From a virus, in IMG/VR virus record IMGVR_UViG_3300028844_006119, positions 32,001 to 96,000 of that record: a stretch of 64,000 nt of DNA; one strand, 5' to 3'. This document shows positions 46,758-64,000 of this stretch, piece by piece. The translations under genes and the position numbers were made by a program. Positions within the stretch are counted from its first letter, which is position 1; each line of letters begins with the position of its first letter. Below the pieces are notes generated by a model that worked only from the letters and a program-made list of their open reading frames with translations, did no database searches and had not been told where the DNA came from.

Positions 46758-47936
46758 ATGTCTGTAATCGACCACCATGACGACCTATGCGAGTCCTTCC
46801 TGGCCTCTGTAGACCCCAATCAGGTGTCTGAGATCATGAAGACCTCTTCCTGGAGGGAGTCCTCGGACCTCCTGGACCGGGACTTTGCGCTCATCCTGGT
46901 GGACGAGGTCGGCAAGGAGCACAGGAAGTTTGCCTGTTTCGACTCCGGCAATGCGCTGATGTCGGAGTGGTACCTTTTGCACGCTGAGCACGGCCTAGAC
47001 AGCGACTCCGTCAAGACCGCCGCCGCCAACATCGTAGACTCCCTGGAGCACTACGGACTGACCCCTGCACCCGCTTCCGTTTACCTGGCAGACCGTACTT
47101 CCGGGGCAGATTCTCGGAGGGTTAAGGTAGCTGGGGCTCCAATGTCTGACTCCCACAGCTCTATTCGCGCCGCAAAGGGTGGGGCGATTGGGGGAGCAGC
47201 TCTGGGAGCGATTTCTGGAGCTAAGGGAGGGGGGACTCCTCTTCAGATCGCCGGTCGGATGCTAGGCAGAGGCGCCGCAGTGGGCACCGCTGGCGCGCTG
47301 GGAGTGGGCGGTATGGACTACACAGCCAAGAACGCCTCGGCGTTTGACTACGTAGCAGACGCTGCCGCTTCGTGGGACGACCTCGATCCGTACGACAGAC
47401 ACGAAGTTGCTGTAAATCTGGTGAAGGTCGCCTCCGCAGGCGGAGCAACCGTTCCTGGCCACATTCGCGCCTACAGCGGCACTTCCTTGAGCCCGAACTT
47501 CAAGAAGATCGCAGAGGCCCGCAGGGACTTCACCTCCCAGCAAGACACCCAGGACGGGTACACGCGGTTGTCGAAGATGGCCGCGGCCATGGACCCTGAT
47601 GATGTCGTCGAGGCCATGTACCTCCTAGACGAGCAGGCCCAGATCAACCACCGCTACGGAAGTCGCATCCCCGACCCAGTTCTGTCCGTCTATGGCACCA
47701 CCAAGGAGGCAGAGTTCTCCTGGACCCACGGCGGCGACTATGTGAACGAGAGGATGCTAAAGAGGTACGCGGGCAGCGATTCCTCCCAGAAGATGGAAGA
47801 TGTCTTCACCGATGATCTCAAGGATCTCTTTCGGAGAGACCCCATCTCTGTGTTCAAGCGGATGCCCGACGAGCAGAAGATCCTCCTCGCTAGAATGGCC
47901 TCCCAGTCCCGAGATAACAATAACGGCGGATACTGA
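46758..47936 (+). CDS. Putative head (core/scaffold-type) protein with multiple KxA sites and a glycine-zipper cassette
   Basis: GGAG RBS before ATG 46758; 8 of 18 Lys are in K-x-A (hand count); upstream of portal. Confidence 0.6.
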   Translation: MSVIDHHDDLCESFLASVDPNQVSEIMKTSSWRESSDLLDRDFALILVDEVGKEHRKFACFDSGNALMSEWYLLHAEHGLDSDSVKTAAANIVDSLEHYGLTPAPASVYLADRTSGADSRRVKVAGAPMSDSHSSIRAAKGGAIGGAALGAISGAKGGGTPLQIAGRMLGRGAAVGTAGALGVGGMDYTAKNASAFDYVADAAASWDDLDPYDRHEVAVNLVKVASAGGATVPGHIRAYSGTSLSPNFKKIAEARRDFTSQQDTQDGYTRLSKMAAAMDPDDVVEAMYLLDEQAQINHRYGSRIPDPVLSVYGTTKEAEFSWTHGGDYVNERMLKRYAGSDSSQKMEDVFTDDLKDLFRRDPISVFKRMPDEQKILLARMASQSRDNNNGGY

Positions 47937-48727
47937 TGTCCTTGTTCAAGGACGAGCAGGCTCATCCATTGATCCTCCTCAGGAAGTACCTGGGGATGTT
48001 CGGCATTGACGCCCTGGAGTGGGAGCCGCCCGTGATCAAGAGCTCGGTAGAGGATGAGACGGGGACTTCAATCGCCCGGATCAACCTGCTGAAGCTCATG
48101 GCCGCCATCGCCGTGGCCAATCACGATTCGTTCTGGAAGGACTGGCAGACGTTCCACTTCCTTACCGCTGCCTTGAACAACAACATCCCATCCGCCGCAG
48201 TCCTGTCGGATCAGACCGTGGGACAGATGATGACCGCGGTAGACATCGCGAACACCATACGTAAAGACTTGGGGAAGGCCACGTCAGTGCCTTCCTTTGG
48301 GGAGAAAGTCGCTCGGTACATCGCAGCGCAGGCCCTCGAGTCTGGAATTTGGTACCTGCCGTCCCCTCTAGGCTTCGCAAACAAGTACTGTGCCGGGCTC
48401 ATGCAGCGGTGCGGGAGATGCAGTAATGAGGAGGAGCGTCAGGATGACGGGCTCTGTAGTTATTGTACGGAGAGGTACAGCATGGACTCCCTGCAGAAGA
48501 TGGAGCCAGATCCCGACCTGGCAGGGCAATGGGACGCATCTAAGGTGAAGCCTTTTACCCTGCACCCATACGAGGGAGTAAGTCAGCGCCTGACCGAAGC
48601 TCTCACCCATAAGGACGTGGTCCTGGGGGAGACTCAGGATGACATCTGCGCCGCTAAACTGCTGACCGGACTGGAGTACATGAGCTATAGAAGGGCTCAA
48701 CTCAGGTCTCAAGGGGCGACTCAGTGA
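47936..48727 (+). CDS. Hypothetical head-module protein with Zn ribbon
   Basis: CGRC...CSYC; TGATG overlap. Confidence 0.6.
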   Translation: MSLFKDEQAHPLILLRKYLGMFGIDALEWEPPVIKSSVEDETGTSIARINLLKLMAAIAVANHDSFWKDWQTFHFLTAALNNNIPSAAVLSDQTVGQMMTAVDIANTIRKDLGKATSVPSFGEKVARYIAAQALESGIWYLPSPLGFANKYCAGLMQRCGRCSNEEERQDDGLCSYCTERYSMDSLQKMEPDPDLAGQWDASKVKPFTLHPYEGVSQRLTEALTHKDVVLGETQDDICAAKLLTGLEYMSYRRAQLRSQGATQ

Positions 48728-49689
48728 TTTCCAGCGGCTCCCTCTTTTTCTTCAGCGACGAAATACAAAAGTGTGCAGGCATGCCTGCGCCTCAGCAAGC
48801 GCAGCAACCTGAGAAGAAACAGAGCTTTCTCTCCAGGAACAAGATGACTTTGGGAGCCGGCGCTCTTGCCGCAGGGATGATCCTAAAGAACCCCCAGGCA
48901 GCCTCCAAGTACCTGGGCCAAGTGAAGCAGATGGTCACTAACCCTAAGGCAGCCCTTCAGCGTGGCTGGAGATCTGGCTCATCCAACATCACCGGCAAGG
49001 TCCCCGGGGCCTCCGAGTCGGCGTCCAAGAGAGTCAGACTGTACAAGGACGTCTTAAGCTCGGCCGAGCAAGGCAAGCTTCAGTCCGTCAAATCCCTCGA
49101 CACTATTGGCGCGGGGGGAACTTCTGCGAGAGCTTCGGGCTGGGGAAGCGCGGGTAGGTCGTTCAGTAGAGCAGGACAAGAGCTAAAGATGTCCCCCGAT
49201 CTCACTAAGAGAGTGGGAGACATGCAAGCCAAGCTCAAGGCCGGAGAAGAAGTCTCAGAGCAAGCCTTGAAGGGCCTTTATGCTGAGATTCAGGGTGCTG
49301 GAAAGGGCCTTAAGATGAGGAAGGGCCTGTCGTACTATGCCCCTGGAGAGCGTACGATGATGACAGGTCTGGGCACAGGTCTGGGGGCAACGGCGGGCCT
49401 TGAGACCCACGATGCGGAAACAGGACGCAAGAGGGGCGTGGCGGAGCGAGTTGCTCGCGGGACTGTCGGTGCTGCGACTGGCACCGCGATGTCCTCCCTA
49501 TTCATGGGACGAGGCGCAAGGCTCAGCAGCAAGAACTTATTCACAGGAAATAGAGGCTCTCTGCTCAGCCAAAAGGGACTTCTGCCAGTCGCGGCAACGA
49601 CTCCCCTACTGGTGGGTACTGAGGCCGCTGGGGAGGTCGCGGGGAAGGGCGGAGAGCTGGCCGACAGAGCCTTTGGACAGAAATCATGA
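48724..49689 (+). CDS. Basic Gly/Ala-rich KxA-motif protein (putative virion cargo)
   Basis: FFSDEIQKCAG leader; LGAGALAAG, GLGTGLGATAG, GTVGAATG segments. Confidence 0.6.
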   Translation: MISSGSLFFFSDEIQKCAGMPAPQQAQQPEKKQSFLSRNKMTLGAGALAAGMILKNPQAASKYLGQVKQMVTNPKAALQRGWRSGSSNITGKVPGASESASKRVRLYKDVLSSAEQGKLQSVKSLDTIGAGGTSARASGWGSAGRSFSRAGQELKMSPDLTKRVGDMQAKLKAGEEVSEQALKGLYAEIQGAGKGLKMRKGLSYYAPGERTMMTGLGTGLGATAGLETHDAETGRKRGVAERVARGTVGAATGTAMSSLFMGRGARLSSKNLFTGNRGSLLSQKGLLPVAATTPLLVGTEAAGEVAGKGGELADRAFGQKS

Positions 49690-51788
49690 ACGTAGTTTCT
49701 AGCGAATCAAACCGATTCAACCCGCGCCCTGTCGACTATGAGGGTGGCCGGGGCTTCGGCATTCGCTACCCGTCCCCCTTCTTCGATGTCGCGCAGCAGT
49801 TTCTTCCGTCCGACGTACACCAGCTCCATCACTGGTGTCGGTACTACTTTCTGACCAACCCGGTTATCAACGCTGCCTGCTCCAAGATGGCGGAGTACCC
49901 CGTCACTCCTCTCGTCTTTGAGACGGAAGACCCCAAGCTGGTAGAGCTGGGCAAGTCCCTAGAAGATCAGCTAAAGCTGCGATCTTTTCAGGTTGAAGTC
50001 GGACTAGACTACTTTGTCTACGGAAATGCGTTCATCTCGCTGTTCTTCCCGTTTGAGAAGTACCTCCTCTGCCCGAAGTGCAAGGAGCGTTACCGCGCCA
50101 GCAAGAACCGCTTCAGATACAAGTGGCGGAGCGGTCGCTTCTATCTGAAGGAGTGCAAGTGCGGGTACCAGGGGTACGCGAAGCAGCAGGATGTCTACAT
50201 CCGCAGCGCGCGCGACATTCGCCTGGTTCGGTGGAATCCAGAGAACGTCAACATCAAGTACAACGAGATCACAGGTAAGGCGAAGTACTACTTCAAGCTG
50301 CCTCGAGCGATCGCCAACGATATCAAGTTGGGCGACGCGGACACGATCGAGACGCTACCCCTTGAGTTCCTAGAGGCTGCCCGTAAGAAGAAGTCCCTCC
50401 TGTTTACTCAGGACAACCTCTATCACTTGAAGCGTCCGACGATTGCCCAGAAGGATCAGGGCTGGGGCACTCCCCTGATCTACCCCTTGCTGAAGGACGC
50501 GTTCTACCTGCAGGTCATGAAGAAGGCGAACGAGGCGGTCCTCATGGAACACATCGTTCCTATGAGGATACTCTTCCCTGGGCAGAGCACGGGCGGGAAT
50601 GAGGGTCCATACGGATCCTATAACCTGAGCAACTGGAAAAAGAAGGTAGACGCTGAGATCAACATGTGGCGTCGGGACCACAACTACATCCCAGTTCTGC
50701 CCGTGAACGTCGGGTTCCAGCAGATCGGCGGACAGGGCCGAGCCCTTCTGATGTACCAGGAGATGCGTCTTCTTTCGGAGCAGATGCTCGCGGGCGCAGG
50801 AATCCCTGTCGAGTTCATCTTCGGCGGGCTTCAGTGGAGCGGGTCCAGCACCTCCCTCCGGGCTCTGGAGAACATGTTCCTGGGGTACAACAAGCAGCGC
50901 CATGAGCTCGTAAACAAGTTCATCGTGGAGAAGGTTTGCTCCTTCATGCGTTGGCCCAAGATCTCGGTGCGCTTTGACAAGTTCAAGATGGCCGACGATC
51001 TGCAGAGAAGCATGTTCTACCTGCAGCTCAACCAGGCGCAGAAGGTCAGTGACCGCAGGCTGCTTGAGGAGATCGGAGAGAACTTCGATCTCGAGAACGA
51101 TCGCATGATGTCCGAGCTAAAGAAGAACCTTCAGACGCAGCGCACCATGCAGGTCGCCGGTGCTGACGTTCAGGGAGAGATCCAGCTTCGCACTTCCCGG
51201 TACCAGGCTAAGTCTCAGTCCCTAATGGCGAAGGCACAGGCCGAAGTCCAGATGGAGATGCAGAAGAAGCAGCTGGAGATGCAGCAGCAGATGCAGCAGC
51301 AGGTGCAGCAGGGTGCAAACCCTCAACAGGTTCAGGCGGCGCAGCAGGCGGCGCAGCAACAACAAGGCGCAGCAGCACAGGCCGCCCCGCAAGGTCAGGC
51401 TCAGCAGGGCGGAGGTCAGGCTCAGCAGACTCCCGGTATGCCGGACGGGGCCACCGCGTACGATGAGAACGCGAAGTCTCCTAACGACACGGGGATGCCC
51501 GCAGCTATGGCGGGTATGACTTCTCAGATCCAGCAGGGAGCTGGAGGAGTAGACCTTCGATACATCGCCCAGAGAGCCGCGGCGTTCTTGAAAACGGTCA
51601 AGAAGGAGCAGGGCCCTGAGGCCATGTACAAGTCTTTGGCCGAGATGCAAACCGGCAATCCGAATCTCTATCAGCTGGTTGTCCAGCTATTGAACGATAC
51701 AGGATCTAAGGAAAATCCCCAGAACGCCCAGGCGGCCCCCAAGCCTAACGGGAATCCGCAAGCGGATATTTCCCGTCAGGTGGGGTAG
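49686..51788 (+). CDS. Portal protein
   Basis: YFLTNPVINAACSKMAEY, DYFVYGNAF, YHLKR...GWGTPLI, AGAGIPVEFI, V.FDK; Gln-rich C-terminal tail. Confidence 0.8.
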   Translation: MNVVSSESNRFNPRPVDYEGGRGFGIRYPSPFFDVAQQFLPSDVHQLHHWCRYYFLTNPVINAACSKMAEYPVTPLVFETEDPKLVELGKSLEDQLKLRSFQVEVGLDYFVYGNAFISLFFPFEKYLLCPKCKERYRASKNRFRYKWRSGRFYLKECKCGYQGYAKQQDVYIRSARDIRLVRWNPENVNIKYNEITGKAKYYFKLPRAIANDIKLGDADTIETLPLEFLEAARKKKSLLFTQDNLYHLKRPTIAQKDQGWGTPLIYPLLKDAFYLQVMKKANEAVLMEHIVPMRILFPGQSTGGNEGPYGSYNLSNWKKKVDAEINMWRRDHNYIPVLPVNVGFQQIGGQGRALLMYQEMRLLSEQMLAGAGIPVEFIFGGLQWSGSSTSLRALENMFLGYNKQRHELVNKFIVEKVCSFMRWPKISVRFDKFKMADDLQRSMFYLQLNQAQKVSDRRLLEEIGENFDLENDRMMSELKKNLQTQRTMQVAGADVQGEIQLRTSRYQAKSQSLMAKAQAEVQMEMQKKQLEMQQQMQQQVQQGANPQQVQAAQQAAQQQQGAAAQAAPQGQAQQGGGQAQQTPGMPDGATAYDENAKSPNDTGMPAAMAGMTSQIQQGAGGVDLRYIAQRAAAFLKTVKKEQGPEAMYKSLAEMQTGNPNLYQLVVQLLNDTGSKENPQNAQAAPKPNGNPQADISRQVG

Positions 51789-52048: not shown

Positions 52049-52352
52049 CGACGATGGCCAGCATCAGTACTCCGCTCTCATACCCGCAGATTTCGCATTT
52101 ACCGTTGCCGTAGTAAGGCTGTAGGATGAGACCCTCGGTGCAGGTCGAGCAGACCCACAAGTAGTCCCCAAACGCATTATCGATAAGAGAGCATGTCTCA
52201 CACGCCACATCACTACAGAGGCTTTCGGCCAAGGGACAGTACGCCGTATGTATCGGCTCGTCCCTCTGCTTCTTCTCTGTCGGGACCGCCGGGGCATCTA
52301 AAGAGAAGCCGGAGGGCCGGGCAAAAAGCCCGGCCCTCCTCTTCTTACTCAC
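52041..52352 (-). CDS. Small Cys-rich protein
   Basis: CETC, CSTC, CEIC plus other Cys. Confidence 0.55.
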   Translation of the reverse strand: MSKKRRAGLFARPSGFSLDAPAVPTEKKQRDEPIHTAYCPLAESLCSDVACETCSLIDNAFGDYLWVCSTCTEGLILQPYYGNGKCEICGYESGVLMLAIVDG

Positions 52353-52535: not shown

Positions 52536-52546
52536 TCTTCACTCCT

Positions 52547-52605: not shown

Positions 52606-55600
52606 ATGGCAAACCTGGCTCCAGGGGACGCATACCGCCTCCTCGAAGAAAGAACCAAAGAAGCCATCAAGAGTCACTTCCCGGTCGAAGGCCGAGAAAA
52701 CAGACTCGAGTTGGTAGATATTTCCACGGATGAGGATGCCTCCTCTGCGTCTGGAAAGCACCACAGCTACAACCACACGTCTCAGACGGACGCAAAGCTC
52801 CATGACAGAACATGGGGTCCCAACATCGTAGGGACGTTCCGGCTCGTAAACATGGAGACGGGTAAGGTCGTAGACCAGGGGAAGCGCACCCTGGGCCAGC
52901 TGCCTAAGATCACCAGTCGGTACAGCTACATCGTTGAGGGGAACGAACGTCAAGTCGACAGCGTCTTCCGCCTTAACCCCGGCGCCTATCACGTAGAGGC
53001 CGACAACGGAGATCTTCTTGCGAAGTGGAACGTCGCCGCAGGATCCAAGGTTGGTTCGTTCAAGATCTCCATTGAGCGTAAGCATCCCAAGAAACTGGGG
53101 GCCATGTACCTGATTGTGAAGAGTGGCACGCAGTCTACTCGCAAGATCCCGGCGTACGGAATCCTCTCCGCCCTGGGAGTATCCGACCCTGCTATGCGCA
53201 AGGCGTGGGGAGAATCCGTATTCGAGGTAAACCGCAGGATCTCCAAGCCCAACGACCTTCTAAACTTTCACGAAGCGGTGGAGAAGCGCCGAGCGGGCAA
53301 GGATAAGTACGAGACGCCTACCCTCTCCGAGGCCCGCAAGTTTGCGAAGGAAGTCTTCGAGGGCGCAGAAGTAAACCCCGATACGATGCTTGCTACGCTG
53401 GGCAAGAAGTTCACCAACATCTCTGGGGACGCTCTCCTGGCCTCCTCGGCCAAGGTGGTGGGAATTAGCAAGGGGACCGCGGAGCCTGACGACAGACAGT
53501 CTCTCTCCAACAAGCGCCTCTTCGGGATGGAAGATTTCATCCACGAGGAGATCTCTAAGGGATCGTCTCGGTTCGAGATGCAGAAGAAGATCCGGAACAA
53601 CCTCGATCGTAAGGGCAAGATCTCAGACATTCTTCCGGCTGCGTCCGTGGGGTATGGGAGGCTGATCACGCGCAAGTTCAAGGCTGCCCAACTTCCGACC
53701 CAGACAAATCCCCTTCAGTTCGTGTCTAACCACACGAAGACGACCATTCTCGGTCAGGCGTTTGGCGGAATTAAGGGAGACAATGTCAACCTTGATCGAG
53801 ACAAGCTGATCAATCCCTCTCACTTGGGGCTGCTTGATCCTCTGCAGACACCAGAGAACACCTCTACCGGCGTCTCGCTGCACATCCCAATCGGGGCCAA
53901 TAAGAAAGGTCAGCAGCTTTACACAAAAGTCCTGAACGTAAAGACCGGGAAGTTCGAGAATAAAAACGCAGCGGAGATGGAGAAGGCCGTCGTTGCATAC
54001 CCCGACCAGGTGAAAATCACCCGCACGAAGACCGGAGCCACAGTCCGGCCCCTGCACCCCGACGTTGTCGTCTATGACTCAGACCGCAGCACGGCCAAGA
54101 GGCCCTGGAAGGACGTCCAGTACGTTCTTCCCAACGCAAAGACACTATTCTCGGTTAGCGCAAACATGATCCCGTTCGTTCAGAACGACAACGGGAACCG
54201 AGCCATGATGGCCGCTAAGCACCAGGAGCAAGCAGTCTCTCTGAAAGACCGAGAAGCCCCGCTGGTTCAGGCTGAATTTGCGGGAGGGGTCTCATTCGAC
54301 CAGATGATCGGCAAGTTGAACTCTACTACCGCTAGTGTGGCCGGAACTGTGTCGAGAATCACCAAGGATTCTGTTTACATAAAGGGCGCGGCAGGAAAAG
54401 CGGTGTCCCACCCGATCTACAACCACCATCCCCTCAACGGCACGAAGCACATGATGCATTCGACTCCGGTTGTGAAGGTGGGAGACAAGGTAAAGGTTGG
54501 ACAGCTCATCGCCGACTCTAACTTCACCAAGGACGGCACCCTATCCTTGGGTACGAATCTTCGCGTCGGGTATCTGCCGTACAAGGGCTACAACTTTGAG
54601 GACGGGACCGTCATCTCGGAGACTGCCGCCAAGAAGTTGGTGTCCACCCATCTCCACATCGAAGAAGCGGAGATGTTCGCCAACGTAGTCGTAAACAGGA
54701 AGCTGTGGAGAAACTTCGCTGGGGCCAACAAGGCCACGGCAGAAGTGATGAGCAAGCTGGACGAGGATGGCGTCATCAAGGAGGGAGCCAAGGTAGTTCC
54801 CGACGATGTGTTGATCACTCGGCTGGTCAAGGCGGAGATGACTCGAGAGAACCAGGACGTCAAGAGGTCCCTGAAGAAGGCTATCCGGGACTACAAAGAC
54901 GCCGCAGTGGTCTGGAAGCATGAGTACGGCGGCACTGTCGTTCGAGTCGTCAAGACTGCGAAGAAGATCCAGGTTCATATCCGCACTGAGCAGACAATGG
55001 AGCCCGGAGATAAGCTGTCGGGGCGTCACGGTAACAAGGGAATCATCACCAAGATCCTGCCTGACGATATGATGCCCAAGGATAAGAGCGGGAAGCCCGT
55101 CCATGTCCTGATGAGCCCCGCAGGCGTCCCATCCCGTATGAATGTCGGGCAGGTCCTGGAGACGGCTGCAAGTAAGATTGCCCGCAAGACGGGAAAGTCG
55201 TACAAGATCGAGAACTTCGATGCCTCCGTTGATTACTCCCAGAAGATTAAGGATGAGCTCAAGAAGCACAATCTTTCCGATACGGAGGAGCTTTTCGATC
55301 CCGAAACCGGAGAGTCTCTCGGGCAGATCTTTACGGGTGAGCAGTACATGCTCAAGCTGGACCACCAGGCCGAAAAGAAGGTGTCTGCCCGATCTGGAGG
55401 ATCTGGGTATGCCTATCGGCCCACCGGCGAGGCAATCTCCGGTTCGGGCATCGGGAAGGGCGGGCAACGAATTGGTGGCCTAGACACCTACGCTCTGCTG
55501 GCACACGGAGCCAAGAGAAATCTGATGGAGATGCAGACCTACAAGTCTGACTCCGAGCAGGCCCGGGATGTCTGGATTCGGGTGATGCAGGGACAGCGTC

Positions 55601-58600
55601 CGCCTCCCCCCAAGGTCCCTACCTCGATGGAGCACTTCAAGAAGTACCTACGGGCTACGGGGGTCTATGCCGAGGAGACTGGCGGTGTGTACTCCCTGTC
55701 TCCCATGACGGATGCTCAGACCCTAGGGCAGAGTAAAGGCGCGCTCGTAGCGGCGGATAAGACGCTGGTGGCAAAGGGGATGCTCACCAAGGAAGAAAAG
55801 GGCGGCCTGTTTGATAGGGGCAAGACCGGAGGCATGGAGGGCAAATTCTGGTCCCACATCGACATGAAGACCCGGATGCCCAACCCAATGTTTGAGACCG
55901 CAATCCAGTCTCTGCTCGGCCTAAAAAAGGCGGAGTTTGAAAAGCTGGTCTCCGAAAACGGAGCCGTGGGGAAGAAGTCCGGGTTCCAGATCATTGAGGA
56001 GCGTCTGCGCGCCATCAAGGTTCCCTCCGAGCTAAAGAAGGCGGAAGAGGAGCTGAAGACCGCTAAGAAGGCGGACCTCAACAAGAAGTACAAGAAGGTC
56101 CGGTATCTTCGCGCGCTGAAGGAGCTCAAGACCTCTCCGGTAGACGCCTATACGAACCAGCATCTCCCAGTGCTGCCTCCCATCTTGAGGCCGGTAAAGA
56201 TTGGATACGACGGCACACAGATGATTGATGCCGCGAATCAGTACTACGCCATGATCGGCCAGATGACCAAGCAGGTAGAGCAGGGGAAGAAGGAGGGGCT
56301 GCCGAAGGCCGACATCTTCAAGAGAGAAGCGCAGCTATACGACCTGGTCCGTGCGTTGCGCCTGAATGGCATGACTCAGGAAGGCAGGGAGCTTCCCAGT
56401 CTGATGGACAAGATGACGGGCTCGAAGCCCAAACACTCATTCTTTCAGCAGGGTGTTCTGTCGAAGCGGCAGGACTTGTCGGGCCGGACGGTCGTTACCC
56501 CAGAGCCCGCATTGAAGATGGACCAGGTGGGCATCCCTGTCGATATGGCGATGGAGACGTACAAGCCGTTCGTCATCAGAGAGCTGTGGCGTCGTATGGG
56601 AATCGCCAAGAGCCCTGGCGAAGCAAGACGCATGATCAAGAAGAACCACCCCTCCGCCAAGAAAGCGTTGGAGAGGGTGATTACTCAGCGTCCAGTAATC
56701 ATGAAGAGAGACCCTGCGCTTCATATGTTTTCTACTATGGCCTTCAAGCCAGTTCTTGTGCCGGGGAAGTCGATCAAGATCCACCCACTTGTGTGCGGCG
56801 GCTTCAACGCGGACTTCGATGGCGACACCATGGCCATGTATGTGCCCGTGACTGAGGAAGCTGCGGAGGAGGCCCTGGAGAAGATGCTCCCGTCTAAGAA
56901 CCTGTTTTCCCCCACACACGGGGGCCTCATGTTGACCCCCAGCCAGGATGCCGTTCTCGGCATCTACCAGGCTACAAAGTGGGGCAAGAAGGTTCCTGGA
57001 ATCCTTACGGAGGAGCAGGCGCTTCAGCAGCTGAAGAACGGAAAGTTGAAGTCTGACAACGTCATCACGGTCAAGGGCCACAAGAAGCCTACGACTGCGG
57101 GAAGACTGCGGATCAACAAGACCCTGCCCGGCAGCGTAAAGAATGATCCCGAGCTTCTATACGATCCCAAATTCCGCATGGCCAAGGGCGCTATGAAGGG
57201 ATTCGCAACTCGAGTAGCCCAATCCGATCCGGATGAGTTCTCCGGCATGATCGACGGATGGAAGGAGTTGGGGTTCACGCTGTCATATAAGAACGGTAGT
57301 TCGTTCAGCCTGAATGATTTTCACGACGGTAAGACCATCCGAGACAACGTCCTGAAGAAGTACAAGAAGGAAGAGAATGTGATTCGCAAGTCTGGTATTT
57401 CTCGTAAAAAGAAGGACCAGAAGATTATCGCCCTGTACCAAAAAGCAGGCGAGGAACTCAAGGTTATCGGGCAGGCCCACTACAAGGCTAAAAAAGACAA
57501 CCGTATGTGGGAGTGGGCTGAAAGCGGTGCGCGAAGCAACTGGGGCCAGTTCGGTCAGTTGGTCATGGGGCCCATGCTTGTGCAGAACCCCTCCAAGGAG
57601 TTTGTGCCTGTACCGCTCACTACCTCGTTTGGGGAGGGGCTCCCGATCTCTCAGTACTGGGCAGCGCTGCATGGCGCCCGAAAGGGAACCCTGGATCGCG
57701 CAGCAGGAACTAGAGACCCCGGAGCGCTCACCAAGGAGTTGATCAACACAGTCATTGCGTACTCTGTGACCGACAAGGACTGTGGTACTTCCAAGGGCAC
57801 TCTGATGTCCGTCATGGCGAAGGACATCGAGGGCAGGTACCTGGCGCGCGAGGTGCCCCTGAAGAGCGGGGACAAACTGACCCGTGGAACCCTGGTCAGC
57901 TCGGCATTGTTGACCAGGATGAAGAACTCCGGCCCCCAGAAGGTCCTGGTGCGCTCCCCTCTTCACTGCCAGCAGGCAACGGGCATTTGCGCCACTTGCT
58001 ATGGGCTTAACGAGAGAGGAACTCTCTACAAAAAGGGAACCAACGTTGGCATCATTGCCGGCCATGCCCTCGGAGAGCCAGTCACTCAGATGCAGATGCG
58101 GACGTTCCACACGGGCGGCGCCGGAACCGACGGGCTGACGGATTACTTCCAGCAGGCAAAGGACCTCTTCAAGGTGCCCGAGAAGCTACGAGGTGCCGCT
58201 ACGTTGGCGGAGGTCACCGGCAGGGTAGATAAAATCGAGACGGATGCCCTTGGCGGTAAGAAGGTCACGATTGGCGGAAAGCTGCACGTTGTCCCCCACT
58301 CGACCCCACTCCTCCCGAAGATTAGGGTCGGGGCGGACGTGAAGAAGACAGACGCGCTCTCTGTTGGTCGGAAAAATCCGCACGACATCCTTCGGATCTC
58401 CAACAACATCCATGCTGTCCGCAATCACCTCACGACAGAGCTAGACTCTCTGTACGTAGAGACTACGGGGAACGAGAGGCGGAGGAACATCGAGACGGTG
58501 ATCCGTGCGATGACCGATGTTGCGCAGGTGACCGAAAGCTCTGAGCACGAGAACCTGCTCAATGGGCAGATGATGTCTCTTTCCCGGATTGAGAACAGGA

Positions 58601-58944
58601 ACAAAGAGCTGAAGAAGTTGGGACTCCCCACCATCCAGCACAAGCCTCTGCTGAAGCCTATGGACAAAGTCCCGCTTTCCGGTAAAGAAGACTGGATGGC
58701 GCGACTAAACTTCCAGAGGCTTAAGGACACCCTTATCGAGGGCGGGGCACAGAACTGGAAGTCAGATATCCAGGGTCACCCCATCCCAGGCCTGGCGCAT
58801 GGTGCGGCGTTTGGACTGCAAGCCCCAAAGACCGCAGCCATAAGCTCCCCTTTCCCCAAGCCCCCCAAACCTGTTAAACTTCCGGCACCTGTGCCTGCCG
58901 CCCCGCAGGGCATCTTCGGGTCCTTCTTTGGAGCAAAGTCATGA
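52606..58944 (+). CDS. rpoBC: Fused beta-beta' (RpoB-RpoC) DNA-directed RNA polymerase, single 2112-aa chain
   Basis: Beta motifs QTPE, NRAMM, GYNFED, GDKLSGRHGNKG, PSRMNVGQ, YMLKLDH, GGQRIG; beta' motifs LPVLPPILRP, KRQDLSGR, NADFDGD (56806-56826), PSQD, HGARKG, RSPLHC, CATCYG, GEPVTQMQMRTFHTGG; no internal stop. Confidence 0.96.
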   Translation: MANLAPGDAYRLLEERTKEAIKSHFPVEGRENRLELVDISTDEDASSASGKHHSYNHTSQTDAKLHDRTWGPNIVGTFRLVNMETGKVVDQGKRTLGQLPKITSRYSYIVEGNERQVDSVFRLNPGAYHVEADNGDLLAKWNVAAGSKVGSFKISIERKHPKKLGAMYLIVKSGTQSTRKIPAYGILSALGVSDPAMRKAWGESVFEVNRRISKPNDLLNFHEAVEKRRAGKDKYETPTLSEARKFAKEVFEGAEVNPDTMLATLGKKFTNISGDALLASSAKVVGISKGTAEPDDRQSLSNKRLFGMEDFIHEEISKGSSRFEMQKKIRNNLDRKGKISDILPAASVGYGRLITRKFKAAQLPTQTNPLQFVSNHTKTTILGQAFGGIKGDNVNLDRDKLINPSHLGLLDPLQTPENTSTGVSLHIPIGANKKGQQLYTKVLNVKTGKFENKNAAEMEKAVVAYPDQVKITRTKTGATVRPLHPDVVVYDSDRSTAKRPWKDVQYVLPNAKTLFSVSANMIPFVQNDNGNRAMMAAKHQEQAVSLKDREAPLVQAEFAGGVSFDQMIGKLNSTTASVAGTVSRITKDSVYIKGAAGKAVSHPIYNHHPLNGTKHMMHSTPVVKVGDKVKVGQLIADSNFTKDGTLSLGTNLRVGYLPYKGYNFEDGTVISETAAKKLVSTHLHIEEAEMFANVVVNRKLWRNFAGANKATAEVMSKLDEDGVIKEGAKVVPDDVLITRLVKAEMTRENQDVKRSLKKAIRDYKDAAVVWKHEYGGTVVRVVKTAKKIQVHIRTEQTMEPGDKLSGRHGNKGIITKILPDDMMPKDKSGKPVHVLMSPAGVPSRMNVGQVLETAASKIARKTGKSYKIENFDASVDYSQKIKDELKKHNLSDTEELFDPETGESLGQIFTGEQYMLKLDHQAEKKVSARSGGSGYAYRPTGEAISGSGIGKGGQRIGGLDTYALLAHGAKRNLMEMQTYKSDSEQARDVWIRVMQGQRPPPPKVPTSMEHFKKYLRATGVYAEETGGVYSLSPMTDAQTLGQSKGALVAADKTLVAKGMLTKEEKGGLFDRGKTGGMEGKFWSHIDMKTRMPNPMFETAIQSLLGLKKAEFEKLVSENGAVGKKSGFQIIEERLRAIKVPSELKKAEEELKTAKKADLNKKYKKVRYLRALKELKTSPVDAYTNQHLPVLPPILRPVKIGYDGTQMIDAANQYYAMIGQMTKQVEQGKKEGLPKADIFKREAQLYDLVRALRLNGMTQEGRELPSLMDKMTGSKPKHSFFQQGVLSKRQDLSGRTVVTPEPALKMDQVGIPVDMAMETYKPFVIRELWRRMGIAKSPGEARRMIKKNHPSAKKALERVITQRPVIMKRDPALHMFSTMAFKPVLVPGKSIKIHPLVCGGFNADFDGDTMAMYVPVTEEAAEEALEKMLPSKNLFSPTHGGLMLTPSQDAVLGIYQATKWGKKVPGILTEEQALQQLKNGKLKSDNVITVKGHKKPTTAGRLRINKTLPGSVKNDPELLYDPKFRMAKGAMKGFATRVAQSDPDEFSGMIDGWKELGFTLSYKNGSSFSLNDFHDGKTIRDNVLKKYKKEENVIRKSGISRKKKDQKIIALYQKAGEELKVIGQAHYKAKKDNRMWEWAESGARSNWGQFGQLVMGPMLVQNPSKEFVPVPLTTSFGEGLPISQYWAALHGARKGTLDRAAGTRDPGALTKELINTVIAYSVTDKDCGTSKGTLMSVMAKDIEGRYLAREVPLKSGDKLTRGTLVSSALLTRMKNSGPQKVLVRSPLHCQQATGICATCYGLNERGTLYKKGTNVGIIAGHALGEPVTQMQMRTFHTGGAGTDGLTDYFQQAKDLFKVPEKLRGAATLAEVTGRVDKIETDALGGKKVTIGGKLHVVPHSTPLLPKIRVGADVKKTDALSVGRKNPHDILRISNNIHAVRNHLTTELDSLYVETTGNERRRNIETVIRAMTDVAQVTESSEHENLLNGQMMSLSRIENRNKELKKLGLPTIQHKPLLKPMDKVPLSGKEDWMARLNFQRLKDTLIEGGAQNWKSDIQGHPIPGLAHGAAFGLQAPKTAAISSPFPKPPKPVKLPAPVPAAPQGIFGSFFGAKS

Positions 58945-59363
58945 ACAAGATCGCCGCATACGAAATCGCACTCGAGAGAATCGAACTTGAGAAGCGGGCT
59001 GACTCCCTGGTGGAGGCCTACGGCACCAGTGAGGGCTACATGCCGGGTGCCTACCTTCAGGCGTTTGATCAGATCGAGAAGGAAGCCGGAATCCAGGCTA
59101 TCGCAAATATCGGGAGCCGCCTCTCAACAGCGGCGCGAGGCACCATTAAAGGGATGATGGGGAGCGGCGGGGCAGTAGTCCGAAAGGGCGGGAAGATGCA
59201 GCTTAGCAGGGGAGCCGGACTTGGGGACACGGCTAAGTACTACGGAGCTCGAGGCGTGCAGCGCGCGGGAAGATTCGCCATGCAGAATCCCGGCGCGACT
59301 GCAGCTGTTGGCGGGGTCGGAGGTGTCGGAGCTGCCGGCCTCGGGTACAAGGCTCTGAAGTAG
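58941..59363 (+). CDS. KxA-motif glycine-zipper protein (putative virion cargo)
   Basis: MNKIAA, LEKRAD, FDQIEKEAG; C-terminal AAVGGVGGVGAAGLG. Confidence 0.65.
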   Translation: MNKIAAYEIALERIELEKRADSLVEAYGTSEGYMPGAYLQAFDQIEKEAGIQAIANIGSRLSTAARGTIKGMMGSGGAVVRKGGKMQLSRGAGLGDTAKYYGARGVQRAGRFAMQNPGATAAVGGVGGVGAAGLGYKALK

Positions 59364-59364
59364 A

Positions 59365-60564: not shown

Positions 60565-60797
60565 TGCCCCTCACCGGCACCGAAGATGCTCTCTCTGCTG
60601 CGATTAAGGCTAAGGTCCAGACTAATAACCCTGACTTTGCCAGTAAGATCGGGGATGATTGGGATTGGCTGTTTGACTCTATCGCCAAGGCGGTTGTAGA
60701 TCACGTCAGAGACAATATTTTGGTCGCCGGCACTACGGTTACGACGTGTGGTGCTGGTGCCGGTTCCGGTGTCTTCACCCACGTTTCCACTTCTTGA
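60564..60797 (+). CDS. Small spike-associated protein
   Basis: TAATG overlap; IAKAVVDHV pattern; directly follows the spike gene. Confidence 0.55.
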   Translation: MPLTGTEDALSAAIKAKVQTNNPDFASKIGDDWDWLFDSIAKAVVDHVRDNILVAGTTVTTCGAGAGSGVFTHVSTS

Positions 60798-60805
60798 GGA
60801 CTAAA

Positions 60806-62146
60806 ATGGCACAACTCCTATTTCTGCCTGATGTCGACCCGAATTCCTTTTTCGAGAAGGAGGCGTCGATCTCGAAGATGCCCGAGGACGAGAAGGATTG
60901 GCCCAGCCACATCCTGAGCATGCTGTACGAGCAGCTGCCCTTCCTCAGCAAGTTCTCGGTCAACATCATGATCCAGAGAATGGAGCCGGAGGCAGGATTT
61001 GCGTTTGGTTACGCCCTGGTTCTGTCTAAGAGCGATCCGCGGGTCTCCACTGAGTCCAAGAACGTTGAGAACGGGATCCGCATTCCTCTCATCGTGGCAG
61101 ATCGGCAGCTCCAGCCGTTCCATACCTTTGAGCTGAAGGGACAGGTCCGGCCCCTTACTCCTGAACGAGTCGCGGCTGCCATGATGAACCCCGCGATGTT
61201 CGACGGCCCGGCCACAAAGCCCGAGACTCAGAAGTCTCTCGTCGATCAGATGTACCCGCCCTACCAGCAGCGCCAGGGCTTCGGCATGACCAGCAGTGGA
61301 AATGCAGGAGGCATGGGTAAGGTCAGTTCTATGCCCCTCTCTGCTATGACGGCCCCACAGCTAAAGCAGCACGCCCGACTGAAGGAAACTGAGAGGGGAG
61401 ATGCCGCTGCGGCATCCATGACCAGCGGTCAGCGGCTGGAGCAGGCAGGAAGAGCTGCCATTGTCCCCACTGCTGCGGGTGCGTTGATCTCGGCAGGCAG
61501 AGGTGCCATGAAAGGCGGCGGGACTTGGAAAAACAGACTTGCCCGTGGGGCGGCTGGGGTCACTACCGGAGCCCTAACGGGTGCGGGAATCTCTGCAGTA
61601 AATACCGGAGTTCAGGAGTCCGCTAGAGTGGCACGGGATGCTCAGAGGGCTAAGTTGGCCTCCCGGATTAAGAAGGGTCTGCCTCCTGCGCTCGCCCGCA
61701 ACGCAGCAAAGGTAAAAGCAGTGCAGAATCCGGAGGCGGGCGCAGAGGTCCCTGCGGGGCTGCGGAAGAAGGGTTCGGTAAGGGAAGCCCACGTAAAGGA
61801 AGCACTGGCCCGCCTGGACTTCAATCCCAGCCGTAGGATTCCTTCAAACATGGTTATGAAGGGCTCTAAGGTCAAGGTGATGCCGGGCGTTACCGCCATG
61901 TCCCTGCGCTTCTTCCCCGTCATGGGAACAAAATTTGTAATAGGCGTGGATACCAAGCTGGCGAAGAAGCTCGGGAAGATGAAGGATCAGAATCAGATCC
62001 GGCAAGCACTAATGGGGCCCATGAAGGCGGAGATCCGGGCTGCGCGCGGTAAGCGCCCCTCCCCCGGAATGTTCATGCTCTTCTCCAAGACGAAGACGGG
62101 ATACGCGTACCAGGTTCCCACCCCCATCCCCGGGATGGCCGCGTGA
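60806..62146 (+). CDS. Modular putative head protein (globular N-domain plus Gly/Ala-rich basic cassettes)
   Basis: GAGGA RBS; FFEKEAS, GKVSS, AKLAS, VKEAL boundaries. Confidence 0.65.
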   Translation: MAQLLFLPDVDPNSFFEKEASISKMPEDEKDWPSHILSMLYEQLPFLSKFSVNIMIQRMEPEAGFAFGYALVLSKSDPRVSTESKNVENGIRIPLIVADRQLQPFHTFELKGQVRPLTPERVAAAMMNPAMFDGPATKPETQKSLVDQMYPPYQQRQGFGMTSSGNAGGMGKVSSMPLSAMTAPQLKQHARLKETERGDAAAASMTSGQRLEQAGRAAIVPTAAGALISAGRGAMKGGGTWKNRLARGAAGVTTGALTGAGISAVNTGVQESARVARDAQRAKLASRIKKGLPPALARNAAKVKAVQNPEAGAEVPAGLRKKGSVREAHVKEALARLDFNPSRRIPSNMVMKGSKVKVMPGVTAMSLRFFPVMGTKFVIGVDTKLAKKLGKMKDQNQIRQALMGPMKAEIRAARGKRPSPGMFMLFSKTKTGYAYQVPTPIPGMAA

Positions 62147-62961
62147 TTCCCTTCTACCCCAAGTTTGGAAGCCAGGAGGATGCTCCAGGGTATGGCCCTG
62201 CTGCGTCCGAGGATAAGTGCGAGAACTGCGCGCATTATCGTAACTTGGGGAACCAAGGGCACTGCGAGAAGTTCTCGTTTATGTGCCAGCCTGAGTACGC
62301 CTGTGACGACTTCCGGCCTTCGGGAGTAATCAAGGAGTCCAGCGTGGTTGCGGAGGCTGCGGCCCTCCCCCGGAAGAAGGTCGAGGCGGTACAGGACACT
62401 GCGCGTGCCCTAAAAGAGAGAAACATCTCTCGAGCCCTGAACTCTGCCCAAAAAGACCTGATGCCGGGGAGATACGACAAGGCCATTGAGAACCTAAAGC
62501 ATCTATACCCCAAAGAGGCTGCTTCTCCTTTCATGCAGGGACTCGATCCTCTTGCAGGGGAGGTCGCCCGGGGAGCTATCCGGGATCGGCTGAATCCCGA
62601 CGTCTCTTCGGAGGAAATGACCCGCAGACGGAGACTCGCGACGCTGGGCGGAGTAGTCGGAGGCGGAGTCCTGGTCCCTGGCGCAGTCTCCGCTGTCCTA
62701 GGGGCCGGTGTTGGAGCTATGGGGAATAGAGGGTTGGGGAGAGTTACGGGAGCCGCGCGCCAGGCAGGGCGGGCTCTGCGAGGAACCTTTACCCGGGCAG
62801 GAAGTCCTGCTCTTATTGCCGGGGCAGGGATCGGAGCAATGGGGGCTCGCTCCCAATACGATTTAGGGGCGGGGCTTGCCGAGCTTGCCGCCGAGAAGCA
62901 CGCCTCTACCGACCACAGCTTGCGGTCTTTTCTTAGGAAGAATCATGAACAAGAACGCTAA
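62143..62961 (+). CDS. Modular protein with a HiPIP-like 4-Cys segment and a glycine-zipper cassette
   Basis: GY.....CENCAHY......C......PEYACDDF; PKEAAS...EKHAS flank a Gly-rich hydrophobic hairpin. Confidence 0.6.
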   Translation: MIPFYPKFGSQEDAPGYGPAASEDKCENCAHYRNLGNQGHCEKFSFMCQPEYACDDFRPSGVIKESSVVAEAAALPRKKVEAVQDTARALKERNISRALNSAQKDLMPGRYDKAIENLKHLYPKEAASPFMQGLDPLAGEVARGAIRDRLNPDVSSEEMTRRRRLATLGGVVGGGVLVPGAVSAVLGAGVGAMGNRGLGRVTGAARQAGRALRGTFTRAGSPALIAGAGIGAMGARSQYDLGAGLAELAAEKHASTDHSLRSFLRKNHEQER

Positions 62962-64000
62962 GGTCTTTGGGGCCACCCACGACTCCGACAGAGCGAACAA
63001 TGCGGCCATCCCCTACTCTGGTAGGCGGCGGGAATATGTTCTCTACCTCAATGCGAAGTCTAAGGAATCCCCCACCAAGCTGGTTACGGCGCTCCTAACT
63101 GGGGCAGGTCTCGGAGGACTGGCGGGAGGACTTGCCGGCCTTGGTGGGGGCGCGAAAGGTGCCCTAGTTGGTATCCTTGCTGGGGCCCTTGGTGGCTCCC
63201 TCTTCGGCGCCCTGGCTAAGGCCATCGATGATGGGAACATTCAAGAGGCTAAGCGCATCCTCCGTAAGGGCCACATCGACCAGGGGCTTGGGGAAGCCAT
63301 CATGCGAAACCAGCGAGCCAAGGAACAGGTGGCCCGGAGCAGACACTCCGAGACCCAACGCCGTCTCTCTGGAATCGAGAGAGGTATGAGTCGAGCCAGC
63401 AGCTACCCACACCGTAGTCGTAGGGTCACTGTGAAGGTCGGATCTCTTTGTTCCAAGATCGCAGGTACCTTGAACGAGTCCGACTTCGAGCGCTTCAATG
63501 AGGTGTTTTCCGACGCCAATACTCGACGAATGATTGAGAAGAACGCCTCCGTCATGGAGTGCCTCACCCTCCTGACTGACTCGGAGATTCACAGCACCGA
63601 CAAGATGGCTTCGGCGGCGGCCTCGGCATTCACGATGGGCTACGACGTGGTCCAGGTGAGACCTTCCGGCTACGGCTACACAGTCAAGGTGTCCGCTGCT
63701 CCGCAGGGCGTGGCCCCGCAAGAAACCCAGATGACTCAGCAGCAGGCTCAGCAGGCTCTTCCTCCTGAGATGCTTCAGGCTGCAGACCAGCAGGGCGCTG
63801 GCACGGTCACCAACGTGCAGGCAGACCCCGATCCGCTCGCGGAGAAGATGGCGCCGGCTACCGGGTTCGGCCTCTACAAGGTCACCGATGCTACTTCAGG
63901 CAAGCAGGTCGTTGGCTATGTCATTCCCGGACTGTTTGATCCGGTCTCGGGACAGCCCTCGCAGGTGAGCCTGTTCACCAACGGCTCCGCATACTGCGTG
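62945..64000 (+). CDS. Modular putative head protein, 3'-truncated (not in ORF track)
   Basis: Hand translation open for 352 codons: MNKNAKVF...GAGLGGLAGGLAGLGGGAKGALVG...KVGSLCSKIAGTLNESDF...EKNAS...DKMAS... Confidence 0.75.
   Translation, partial: MNKNAKVFGATHDSDRANNAAIPYSGRRREYVLYLNAKSKESPTKLVTALLTGAGLGGLAGGLAGLGGGAKGALVGILAGALGGSLFGALAKAIDDGNIQEAKRILRKGHIDQGLGEAIMRNQRAKEQVARSRHSETQRRLSGIERGMSRASSYPHRSRRVTVKVGSLCSKIAGTLNESDFERFNEVFSDANTRRMIEKNASVMECLTLLTDSEIHSTDKMASAAASAFTMGYDVVQVRPSGYGYTVKVSAAPQGVAPQETQMTQQQAQQALPPEMLQAADQQGAGTVTNVQADPDPLAEKMAPATGFGLYKVTDATSGKQVVGYVIPGLFDPVSGQPSQVSLFTNGSAYCV

Follow-up and report, generated by a model that had tools for sequence, protein, structure and literature searches.

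A recurrent K-x-A motif in head-module proteins of an uncultured Arash-like phage and its putative prohead protease

The 64,000-nt stretch analysed here (the window) belongs to an uncultured phage of 142 kb, which has two cultured relatives, Salmonella phage Arash and Vibrio phage D69, both merely ~30% identical to it. The locus raises the question of why otherwise unrelated head-region proteins share the short pattern K-x-A, and what reads it. A sequence-only reading had proposed that K-x-A is a maturation or capsid-targeting code acting on many proteins, with the protease gene outside the window. The peptides quoted for it are all present, namely FNEALLKEAV (470), LRDRLQKIAA (958), FSDEIQKCAG (48724), MNKIAA, LEKRAD and FDQIEKEAG (58941), FFEKEAS (60806), PKEAAS and EKHAS (62143), and MNKNA, SKIAG, IEKNAS and DKMAS (62945). 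Proteins are named by their start coordinates in the window, and the relevant genes are as follows.

470..706, + strand: 78-aa ORF, leader ending AFNEALL-K-E-A-V (K-E-A at nt 515-523), followed by a Gly/Ala-rich segment
958..1791, + strand: sigma factor, N-terminal RLQ-K-I-A-A (K-I-A at nt 988-996)
46758..47936, + strand: 392-aa protein upstream of the portal gene, candidate multi-site protease substrate by K-x-A counts and conservation; K-x-A starts at nt 46926, 47013, 47124, 47328, 47424, 47505, 47574 and 47703
48724..49689, + strand: 321-aa protein, leader FFSDEIQ-K-C-A-GMPA (K-C-A at nt 48769-48777)
49686..51788, + strand: portal protein (context), with 30% identity to gp204, the portal of Arash (E 2e-87), and a weak phrog_2833 match
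52606..58944, + strand: single-chain beta-beta' RNA polymerase within the head module (Pfam Rpb2_6, Rpb1_2, Rpb1_5)
58941..59363, + strand: 140-aa protein, leader MNKIAAY...LEKRA...IEKEA (sites at nt 58947, 58992 and 59079), Gly-rich basic tail
60806..62146, + strand: 446-aa protein, N-terminal FFEKEA-S (site at nt 60857-60865), with a weak PHROG match to an internal virion protein
62143..62961, + strand: 272-aa Cys-rich protein; PKEAAS and EKHAS unsupported
62945..64000, + strand, continuing to genome position 96933: 662-aa protein, picked out by K-x-A count and conservation
Genome 105219-107192, outside the window: candidate prohead protease by fold and gene context, as the N-terminal domain of a 657-aa protein

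Enrichment and conservation of K-x-A

All 1600 gapped residue pairs were scanned in the head-module proteins, and K-x-A took rank 1 with 82 instances against 38.7 expected (p=1e-9, uncorrected for the 1600 tests). As a positive control, the same scan of T4 gp67, gp68, gp21, gp22 and gp23 put L-x-E first and I-x-E second; L/I-x-E is the experimentally known motif of the T4 gp21 protease, and its recovery validates the method. K-x-A is also rank 1 in gp218-226 of Arash (46 vs 21 expected) and in 0266-0275 of D69 (51 vs 22 expected). Enrichment over a composition-matched background had been set as the test of the proposed code, and it was found in head-module proteins only, the count in all other proteins of the phage being at expectation. 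The excess is densest in the protease/scaffold/capsid block (window-equivalent 71486-79668), with 46 instances against 15.9 expected (p=7e-10). At the nucleotide level, AAR-NNN-GCN occurs in 64, 2 and 2 copies in the three reading frames and in 5, 4 and 2 copies on the opposite strand, and the Ala is spelled with all four Ala codons, so the signal lies in the protein and not in the DNA. The K-x-A marking of many head-assembly and internal proteins is a real feature of this phage.

Expectations for single proteins were taken from residue shuffles inside each protein, by which composition is controlled. In the range 46758-64000, the count is enriched in two proteins only, the 46758 protein (8 vs 2.3 expected, p<0.0005) and the 62945 protein (12 vs 4.1 expected, p=0.001); the earlier hand count, which placed 8 of the 18 Lys of the 46758 protein in K-x-A, is exact. 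The shuffle tests gave no count excess for the 48724, 58941 (3 vs 1.5), 60806 and 62143 (2 vs 1.9) proteins, the portal (4 vs ~4) or the RNA polymerase (17 vs 17.1). Three further sites in the range, those of the 48724, 58941 and 60806 proteins, draw their support from conservation only.

Conservation was scored in 3-13 metagenomic relatives, depending on the protein. Over 11 candidate substrates, motif Lys scores 0.73 (other Lys 0.49, p=6.5e-5) and motif Ala 0.78 (other Ala 0.48, p=1.3e-8); the remaining proteins have no gap of this kind. Many of the retained sites lie in flanking sequence that is merely 20-40% identical. In the 46758 protein, six of the eight sites have such support, and over seven relatives motif Lys scores 0.82 (other Lys 0.44) and motif Ala 0.82 (other Ala 0.41); its sites at aa 123 and 191 are separated by a basic cassette that is rich in Gly and Ala and hypervariable. 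This protein matched nothing in Pfam or PHROG, and its AF2 model is of low confidence (pLDDT 52.8). In the 48724 leader, the Lys scores 1.00 and the Ala 0.67 over six relatives; motif Lys of the 58941 protein reaches 0.83 in six relatives, against 0.11 for other Lys; and F-F-E-K-x-A-S-I-A is kept by every relative of the 60806 protein examined. At the far left of the window, the single relative found for the 470 ORF has K-M-A at the same position, and the one relative of the sigma factor has RLE-K-L-A-E there.

The 62945 protein consists of an N-terminal Gly-zipper basic module of ~185 aa, encoded as a separate gene in relatives, fused before a conserved body; the leader that opens this body ends in IEKNA-S (nt 63539-63547). 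Over ten relatives, IEKNAS and five C-terminal sites score 0.9-1.0, and DKMAS is retained with an offset of two residues. MNKNA sits in the N-terminal module, which is missing from the aligned orthologues, and lines up loosely with KEA-RVFG of the stand-alone module copies.

Among the quoted peptides, the 48724 and 58941 sites, FFEKEAS and IEKNAS thus stand as instances of the motif, while SKIAG of the 62945 protein and PKEAAS and EKHAS of the 62143 protein find no conservation in relatives. The N-terminal region of the 62143 protein reads FYPKFGS here and FWPKIAG in relatives. The RNA polymerase combines a chance count with motif Lys that is under no visible selection (0.42 vs 0.48 for other Lys, 13 relatives) and is usable as an internal negative control. 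The proposed code on many proteins is therefore borne out by enrichment and conservation, but the motif is not on all head-region proteins, because the RNA polymerase, the portal and the 47936, 59365 and 62143 proteins are without supported sites.

The conserved sites give the logo [L/F/I]-[E/T/V]-K-x-A-[S/A]-A, which is matched by [L/M/I]-[E/V]-K-x-A-[S/A] in Arash and D69. If the cut is placed after Ala, the 42 conserved sites have Ser (16) or Ala (7) at P1', Ala at P2' in 19, and L/F/I at P5 in 23. Substrates of signal peptidase I (A-x-A) were considered and rejected as a source of the pattern, as the sites are mostly internal, with acidic or polar residues before them, Lys at -3 and no hydrophobic core.

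Candidate protease and capsid protein outside the window

A protease gene outside the window had been predicted, and one is found at genome 105219-107192, where a protease domain with a Cys-rich insert is followed in the same chain by ~340 aa of helical C-terminal domain. As modelled, the product has the T4 gp21/herpesvirus assemblin fold: residues 54-285 of the AF2 model align with T4 gp21 (5JBL) at Z 8.8 (rmsd 2.8, 131 residues aligned) and residues 57-285 with herpesvirus proteases at Z 5-6.7, and the model has 49 BFVD matches at E<=1e-3, many of them named prohead protease. Foldseek against the PDB returned nothing at E<=0.001, its top rows being the same protease families. At the sequence level the protein matches phrog_18299, head maturation protease (E 1e-4), and is similar to phage G gp19 (tblastn, E 2e-10), which is listed among the head maturation proteases of that phage (PMC12484599). 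It matched no Pfam family at E<=0.01, including S77, S78, S21 and U35, and nothing by sequence in the PDB; its sequence is not recognisably similar to that of T4 gp21 (hhalign probability 0.4%). Across 41 diverse homologues, His138 and Ser194 never vary and, at a guess from this alignment, might be the catalytic residues.

The protease itself carries conserved K-x-A at aa 37, 293 and 410, inside the low-confidence stretches 1-40, 292-317 and 409-415, which are probably disordered to judge from the model; a further K-x-A at aa 416 directly adjoins the last stretch. Its N-terminal site has aligned counterparts at aa 30 in Arash and at aa 27 in D69. The protease gene is followed by two scaffold-like genes (322 aa and 121 aa) and by the capsid gene (genome 110532-111668), a gene order shared by Arash and D69, and the small scaffold-like proteins beside the protease have 7-11 K-x-A sites each. 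A check of the capsid protein for the motif had been suggested, and a conserved K-T-A is indeed found at its residues 23-25, with K-x-A at residue 27 in the capsid proteins of both Arash and D69.

Arash and the Vibrio phages D69, D181 and D148 have proteases of the same family (32% identical within the domain), and Arash and D69 share with this phage the logo and the site positions in protease and capsid protein. Only core proteins remain detectably similar between the phage and these two relatives, the substrate proteins having diverged beyond BLAST detection. The RNA polymerase, one chain here, is split in two genes in Arash and these Vibrio phages. In the Arash paper the words protease and cleavage occur 0 times, and it holds no processing analysis (PMC10585845); in the D69 record the corresponding genes are annotated as hypothetical.

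Readings of the motif

The explanation that we consider probable is that the phage's own prohead serine protease recognises and cuts K-x-A, in full [L/F/I]-[E/T/V]-K-x-A then [S/A]-A. What ties the motif to the protease is circumstantial, namely their co-occurrence in three phage lineages; by analogy with assemblin, the proposed cut would lie after the Ala. Under this explanation, the protease would be assembled into the prohead along with scaffold-like and internal proteins, would release itself via cuts in its own flanking linkers and would remove ~25 residues from the capsid protein. The multi-site proteins, i.e., the 46758 protein and the 302-aa, 322-aa and 121-aa proteins beside the protease, would be cut to small pieces, and short N-terminal leaders (FFSDEIxKxA; MNKIAAY...KxA) would be taken off.

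Unrelated proteins do share short N-terminal leaders that end in K-x-A, as suggested earlier. The F-S-D-E-I-x-K-x-A leader of the 48724 protein also opens genes at genome 104384 and 108126, outside the window, and the M-[ND]-K-[IL]-A-A-Y start of the 58941 protein recurs on several unrelated small genes of relatives. Such leaders end in K-x-A, the motif found in excess in the scaffold proteins, the protease and the capsid protein, which points to the leader end as a putative prohead protease site and to the leaders as candidate signals for loading proteins into the capsid; they would probably bring otherwise unrelated proteins into the prohead, as does the T4 capsid-targeting sequence. In virion preparations of Arash, its RNA polymerase, its sigma factor Gp10 and proteins encoded around the protease are present (PMC10585845). 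The preparation also held many replication enzymes and is thus not clean evidence of cargo packaging (PMC10585845). A maturation or capsid-targeting role of K-x-A is supported as far as sequence analysis can go.

Conservation and enrichment fit recognition as well as cleavage, and K-x-A might be a binding or targeting motif only, which docks scaffold and cargo on the capsid interior, the portal or the protease and stays uncut. The opening of shared leaders by the motif and the placement of several conserved sites in predicted helices rather than linkers agree with docking. It is nevertheless unlikely, as sites are found in the disordered linkers on either side of the protease domain and in the capsid N-arm, both known cutting places of prohead proteases, P1 and P1' are small, as is usual for a protease pocket, and the 7-11 sites per small scaffold-like protein recall T4 gp22, which is degraded by gp21. 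We give much less credence to the idea that nothing reads K-x-A in trans and that it just reflects the composition or secondary structure of Ala-rich, helical or coiled-coil scaffold proteins: the proteins with an excess are indeed rich in Ala and mostly helical, and A-A and L-x-E are mildly enriched too in the pair scan, but the within-protein shuffles control composition, the i, i+2 spacing is not a helical period, and K-A, K-x-x-A and A-x-K are absent from the top-ranked patterns in all three phages. The selective conservation of motif Lys and Ala, and the recurrence of the motif in settings as non-homologous as capsid N-arm, protease linkers and short leaders, also speak against it.

The circumstantial nature of the motif-protease link leaves some room for another reader, such as a protease of the host, another one of the phage or a Lys-modifying enzyme. 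This is similarly improbable, because the logo is the same despite very different hosts (Salmonella, Vibrio and a third one at 57% G+C), the protease has the motif on both sides of its own domain, and the sites have Lys at P3 without the hydrophobic core of signal-peptidase substrates; the family scan of head-module proteins found no second protease. Chance or a DNA-level signal can be practically dismissed, given the strength of the excess even before correction, its repetition in Arash and D69, and the frame counts.

If cleavage by the prohead protease is true, K-x-A would be a new specificity for a well-known kind of head-maturation system, and our literature search found no description of a prohead protease with Lys-x-Ala-then-Ser/Ala specificity. 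A wider proposal, which we put forward only tentatively, is that the Arash-like lineage has a prohead protease of this specificity, closer to assemblin than to any characterised phage enzyme, and that portable K-x-A leaders and K-x-A joints form a modular code for loading and releasing many capsid cargos. These cargos might include a private sigma factor, glycine-zipper basic peptides and polyprotein modules shuffled between genes, delivered with the DNA beside an uncut single-chain RNA polymerase.

Comparison with known systems

The proteases of phiKZ (gp175) and SPN3US (gp245) cut after Glu, at S/A/G-x-E. Both phages have no sequence relation to this one. They resemble what is predicted here in that many of their head and ejection proteins, with N-terminal propeptides, are processed at a short motif, and in that an RNA polymerase is in the virion (PMC10052503, PMC5694885); that polymerase consists of split subunits, unlike the single chain and sigma factor of this phage.

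T4 likewise encodes a gp21-fold protease beside scaffold and capsid genes, has small scaffold or core proteins (gp22, gp67 and gp68) dense in a three-residue motif (L/I-x-E), an N-terminal site in the capsid protein, and short shared N-terminal leaders that end in the motif, namely the capsid-targeting sequence of the internal proteins IPI-III and Alt. The differences from T4 are Ala instead of Glu at P1, Lys at P3 and a hydrophobic residue at P5, as deduced for the phage from its logo, and a protease that has the ~340-aa helical C-terminal domain and the Cys-rich insert and lacks detectable gp21 sequence similarity.

The consensus of herpesvirus assemblin, the maturational protease, is V/L/I-x-A then S. 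The likeness to it that had been pointed out earlier holds at the logo level, where under the assumed cut position P1 is Ala and P1' mostly Ser or Ala, and extends to the shared fold and to the fusion of the protease to a scaffold-like C-terminal part with its own sites flanking. The phage differs from assemblin in the invariant Lys at P3 instead of an aliphatic residue, in far more substrates with far more sites in each, and in its tailed-phage setting.

Genomic context of the head-region genes

The sequence derives from a single contig of 142,186 bp that is dense in phage genes, and positions 46758-64000 form a block of plus-strand genes. The closest cultured relatives are the Salmonella phage Arash and the Vibrio phages D69, D181 and D148, with about 30% protein identity, and the metagenomic relatives comprise dozens of contigs with 40-80% identity. 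In addition to the two genes listed here, the block encodes seven to eight proteins without a known family.

Identified genes of the head-region block
49686-51788, plus strand: portal gene, 30% identity to the Arash portal
52606-58944, plus strand: single-chain beta-beta' RNA polymerase, 2112 aa, recognized by its Pfam domains

A Pfam search of ten head-region proteins in the window (the Ser-rich short ORF at 52193 excluded) returned one weak OB-fold match besides the domains of the RNA polymerase, and nothing else. The RNA polymerase gene has the portal gene on one side and the internal-protein genes on the other, and its product is one chain in this phage, whereas it is found as two pieces in Arash and D69.

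Enrichment and conservation of Lys-x-Ala

A sequence-only reading of this DNA had proposed that recurrent Lys-x-Ala (K-x-A) sites form a cutting or targeting code across the head-region proteins. The peptides that it quoted were all found in the sequence, and its hand count for the protein encoded at 46758, 8 of 18 Lys within K-x-A, is exact. Measured against 2000 shuffles of each protein, a handful of proteins stood above background, but there was no general genome-wide excess. The 46758 protein has 8 sites with 2.3 expected, and the 62945 protein has 12 with 4.1 expected. The strongest excess was observed directly past the window, at window-equivalent positions 71486-79668. The counts there include 11 sites in a 657-aa candidate prohead protease (2.5 expected) and, in its neighbours, 11 in a 302-aa protein (2.65 expected), 7 in a 322-aa protein and 5 in a 121-aa protein (1 expected).

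K-x-A counts by gene block, observed versus expected
Protease/scaffold/capsid block: 46 versus 15.9
Window 58941-64933: 21 versus 11.6
RNA polymerase: 17 versus 17.1
Tail block: 7 versus 10.6
Other blocks tested: observed/expected mostly near 1.0 (0.8-1.1); baseplate/fibre block 1.5

The baseplate/fibre ratio is due to a 2334-aa protein (window 24670-31674) with 12 K-x-A versus 4.3 expected (p=0.002), five of which, mostly K-T-A-A, lie within residues 1-860. A PHROG search with this protein gave no match. The excess may reflect processing of its N-terminal part as well, or be a chance effect.

Using a blind ranking of all 1600 residue pairs at gaps of 0-3, K-x-A was identified as the top pattern in the head-module proteins (82 versus 38.7, p=1e-9), and in the rest of the proteome it fell outside the ten best-ranked patterns. 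The same scan placed it first in Arash gp218-226 (46 versus 21) and D69 0266-0275 (51 versus 22), and not among the best-ranked patterns in the portal, polymerase and tail proteins of these two phages. Just the portal, polymerase, protease, capsid protein and some tail proteins of Arash and D69 still match ours; their candidate substrates have diverged beyond detectable similarity, so that the ranking there is close to an independent replicate. With T4 gp67, gp68, gp21, gp22 and gp23 as a positive control, L-x-E ranked first and I-x-E second, which is the experimentally known cut motif of gp21. Since the known T4 motif is recovered, gapped-pair ranking offers a way to infer protease specificity without data beyond the sequence. 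In phage G, whose protease is a more distant relative, the head module was not clearly enriched for K-x-A (rank 13, p=0.02).

Conservation was measured in alignments with 3-13 relatives per protein, and the motif Lys and motif Ala were far better conserved than other Lys and Ala within the same proteins. Pooling 11 candidate substrates, the difference between motif and other residues had p=6.5e-5 for Lys and p=1.3e-8 for Ala, and there was no such difference in all remaining aligned proteins. The RNA polymerase, with its 17 sites at chance level, provided a clean negative control (motif Lys 0.42 versus other Lys 0.48).

Conservation of motif Lys versus other Lys
46758 protein: 0.82 versus 0.44
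58941 protein: 0.83 versus 0.11
302-aa protein: 0.80 versus 0.42
322-aa protein: 0.96 versus 0.40

Taking Lys as P3 and Ala as P1, the logo from 42 sites kept in relatives reads [L/F/I] at P5, [E/T/V] at P4, K, x, A, [S/A], A, in agreement with the originally proposed [hydrophobic]-x-K-x-A-[A/S/G]; in Arash and D69 it reads [L/M/I]-[E/V]-K-x-A-[S/A]. Certain sites, DKMAS of the 62945 protein among them, persist with a shift of one or two residues. The relatives' alignments gave no support to SKIAG or to PKEAAS and EKHAS of the 62143 protein, which had been counted among the sites. For the sigma factor and the ORF at 470 just one relative was found, so conservation there is read from a single comparison sequence.

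A candidate prohead protease and the placement of sites

Candidate protease gene
Genome 105219-107192 (L001:9219-11192): candidate prohead protease, 657 aa, weak PHROG match to head maturation proteases

The 657-aa protein has a domain in common with Arash gp222, D69 0270 and phage G gp19, the last of which is listed among the head maturation proteases of phage G (PMC12484599). At least 249 metagenomic homologues were found, none of them with a Pfam protease domain. Several contain inteins (Pfam PF14528, PF13403, PF14890), which indicates a highly conserved essential site. In the AF2 model (mean pLDDT 78), residues of about 41-290 form an alpha/beta domain and residues 320-625 a helical one, with low-confidence stretches between. 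In structural alignment, the alpha/beta domain matched T4 gp21 with Z 8.8 and rmsd 2.8 over 131 residues, followed by a run of herpesvirus proteases at Z 5-6.7. Foldseek against the PDB gave nothing at E<=0.001, its best rows nonetheless being assemblin and gp21, and BFVD gave 49 matches at E<=1e-3, many bearing the name prohead protease. VIA re-alignment and BFVD are taken to settle the gp21/assemblin fold of the modelled domain.

Sequence comparison gave no such link: a Pfam scan of ten proteins encoded near the protease found no protease family, the protease profile returned nothing meaningful from the PDB sequences, and hhalign against T4 gp21 gave no match. The case for membership is therefore built on the fold, the position of the gene and the links to PHROG and phage G. 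The candidates for the catalytic pair are His138 and Ser194, both invariant in an alignment of 41 diverse homologues. A Cys/His-rich insert at aa 200-245, with C204, C207, C218, H220 and C241 all conserved, looks like a metal-binding site.

Three conserved K-x-A of the protease, at aa 37, 293 and 410, lie within low-confidence stretches of the AF2 model (1-40, 292-317 and 409-415), and a further site at aa 416 adjoins the last of these. The N-terminal site corresponds in the alignment to K30 of Arash gp222 and to K27 of D69 0270, both of which have a further site just past the domain, at aa 218 and aa 214 respectively. In gp19 of Bacillus phage G (L044:8674-9576), LVKTAA and VVKIAP directly precede the protease domain, a position similar to that of K-T-A-S in the protease of this phage. 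In the capsid protein, a fully conserved K-T-A was found at residues 23-25; the capsid proteins of Arash and D69 show LxKEA-GAA, at residue 27. It is at positions like these that characterised prohead proteases release themselves and trim the capsid protein. With 7-11 sites each, the small proteins resemble core proteins of the T4 gp22 type, which are broken down into peptides.

Leaders, modules and the proposed processing

Two leaders recur. F-S-D-E-I-x-K-x-A stands at the start of the 48724 protein and of two small genes adjacent to the protease, and a looser version of it starts the 470 ORF. The other, M-[ND]-K-[IL]-A-A-Y with K-x-A about 15 residues later, is found in the 58941 protein and in several unrelated small genes of relatives. 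The 470-706 ORF (78 aa) overlaps a longest-ORF call at 633-968 in a different frame, and it is probably the real gene of the two because one relative retains it. The 62143 protein (272 aa, 62143-62961) has a conserved N-terminal Cys cluster (C-x-x-C, C-E-K-F-S-F, C, C-D-D-F); its residues 5-11 read FWPKIAG in relatives versus FYPKFGS in this phage, where a likely site has been lost.

After K-x-A leaders or between K-x-A sites, a recurrent Gly/Ala-rich module was observed, with basic flanks and GxxxG-like runs resembling glycine zippers.

Occurrences of the Gly/Ala-rich module
Window 47124-47336: cassette within the 46758 protein
Window 62945-63500: fused ahead of the 62945 protein body
Window 59100-59363: tail of the 58941 protein
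Window 470-706: the 470 ORF
L033:9831-10382 and L022:18917-20035: stand-alone genes in relatives

The module might act as an internal peptide that is membrane-active or binds DNA. In the 62945 protein, residues 1-185 form a glycine-zipper/basic module that relatives encode either as an independent gene, which has a leader of its own, or joined to a 58941-like leader. In the 46758 protein, two sites flank a hypervariable basic Gly/Ala-rich cassette, and a low-confidence AF2 model (pLDDT 52.8, 8 sequences) weakly supports disorder at aa 114-193 between them. Such shuffling is indirect evidence, and fits pieces destined to be cut apart.

In Arash virion preparations, RNA polymerase, sigma factor and proteins encoded around the protease were detected, together with many replication enzymes (PMC10585845). 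The coverage column of its Table 2 conflicts with the peptide counts, several large enzymes, such as the ribonucleotide reductase alpha subunit, having 100% coverage from 2 unique peptides. This inconsistency and the many replication enzymes listed as virion proteins make the table unusable for or against processing, and the paper and its supplements yielded no peptide lists or N-termini. No conserved K-x-A leader was found at the polymerase N-terminus, and its K-x-A are at chance; if packaged, it does not use the leaders described here. The paper on phage G contains no data on cleavage (PMC12484599), literature searches for the motifs or sites cut by prohead or maturation proteases yielded just the T4, phiKZ and SPN3US systems, which cut at Glu, and no description of K-x-A specificity or of this lineage was found in the literature searched.

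Overall, the prohead protease probably reads K-x-A as its cut-and-load code. An origin by chance or from a DNA signal is refuted: AAR-NNN-GCN occurs 64, 2 and 2 times when the enriched genes are read in each of the three frames, and every one of the four Ala codons is in use, so the signal is at the protein level and a DNA-level motif is ruled out. Among protein-level explanations, a docking motif that stays uncut is unlikely. A by-product of composition or structure, set beside the motif residues kept over other Lys and Ala, appears very improbable, and a motif read by another enzyme is given equally little weight.

If the cut-and-load code is true, the motif maps which proteins are processed, and where, across an unstudied lineage that includes two cultured phages, Arash and Vibrio D69, and hundreds of metagenomic relatives. 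It would account for the unusual gene fusions and splits and for the variable cassettes between sites, and would provide candidate tags to load foreign proteins into these capsids. Ala-then-Ser cutting by a phage enzyme of the gp21/assemblin fold would also inform how specificity evolved in the protease that tailed phages and herpesviruses have in common.

Prohead protease processing with targeting leaders is a textbook kind of system, and the protease and K-x-A leaders would act like T4 gp21 with its capsid-targeting sequences. The proposed code differs from that of gp21 in having Lys at P3 and Ala at P1, and the Ala-then-Ser character of the proposed cut recalls herpesvirus assemblin.
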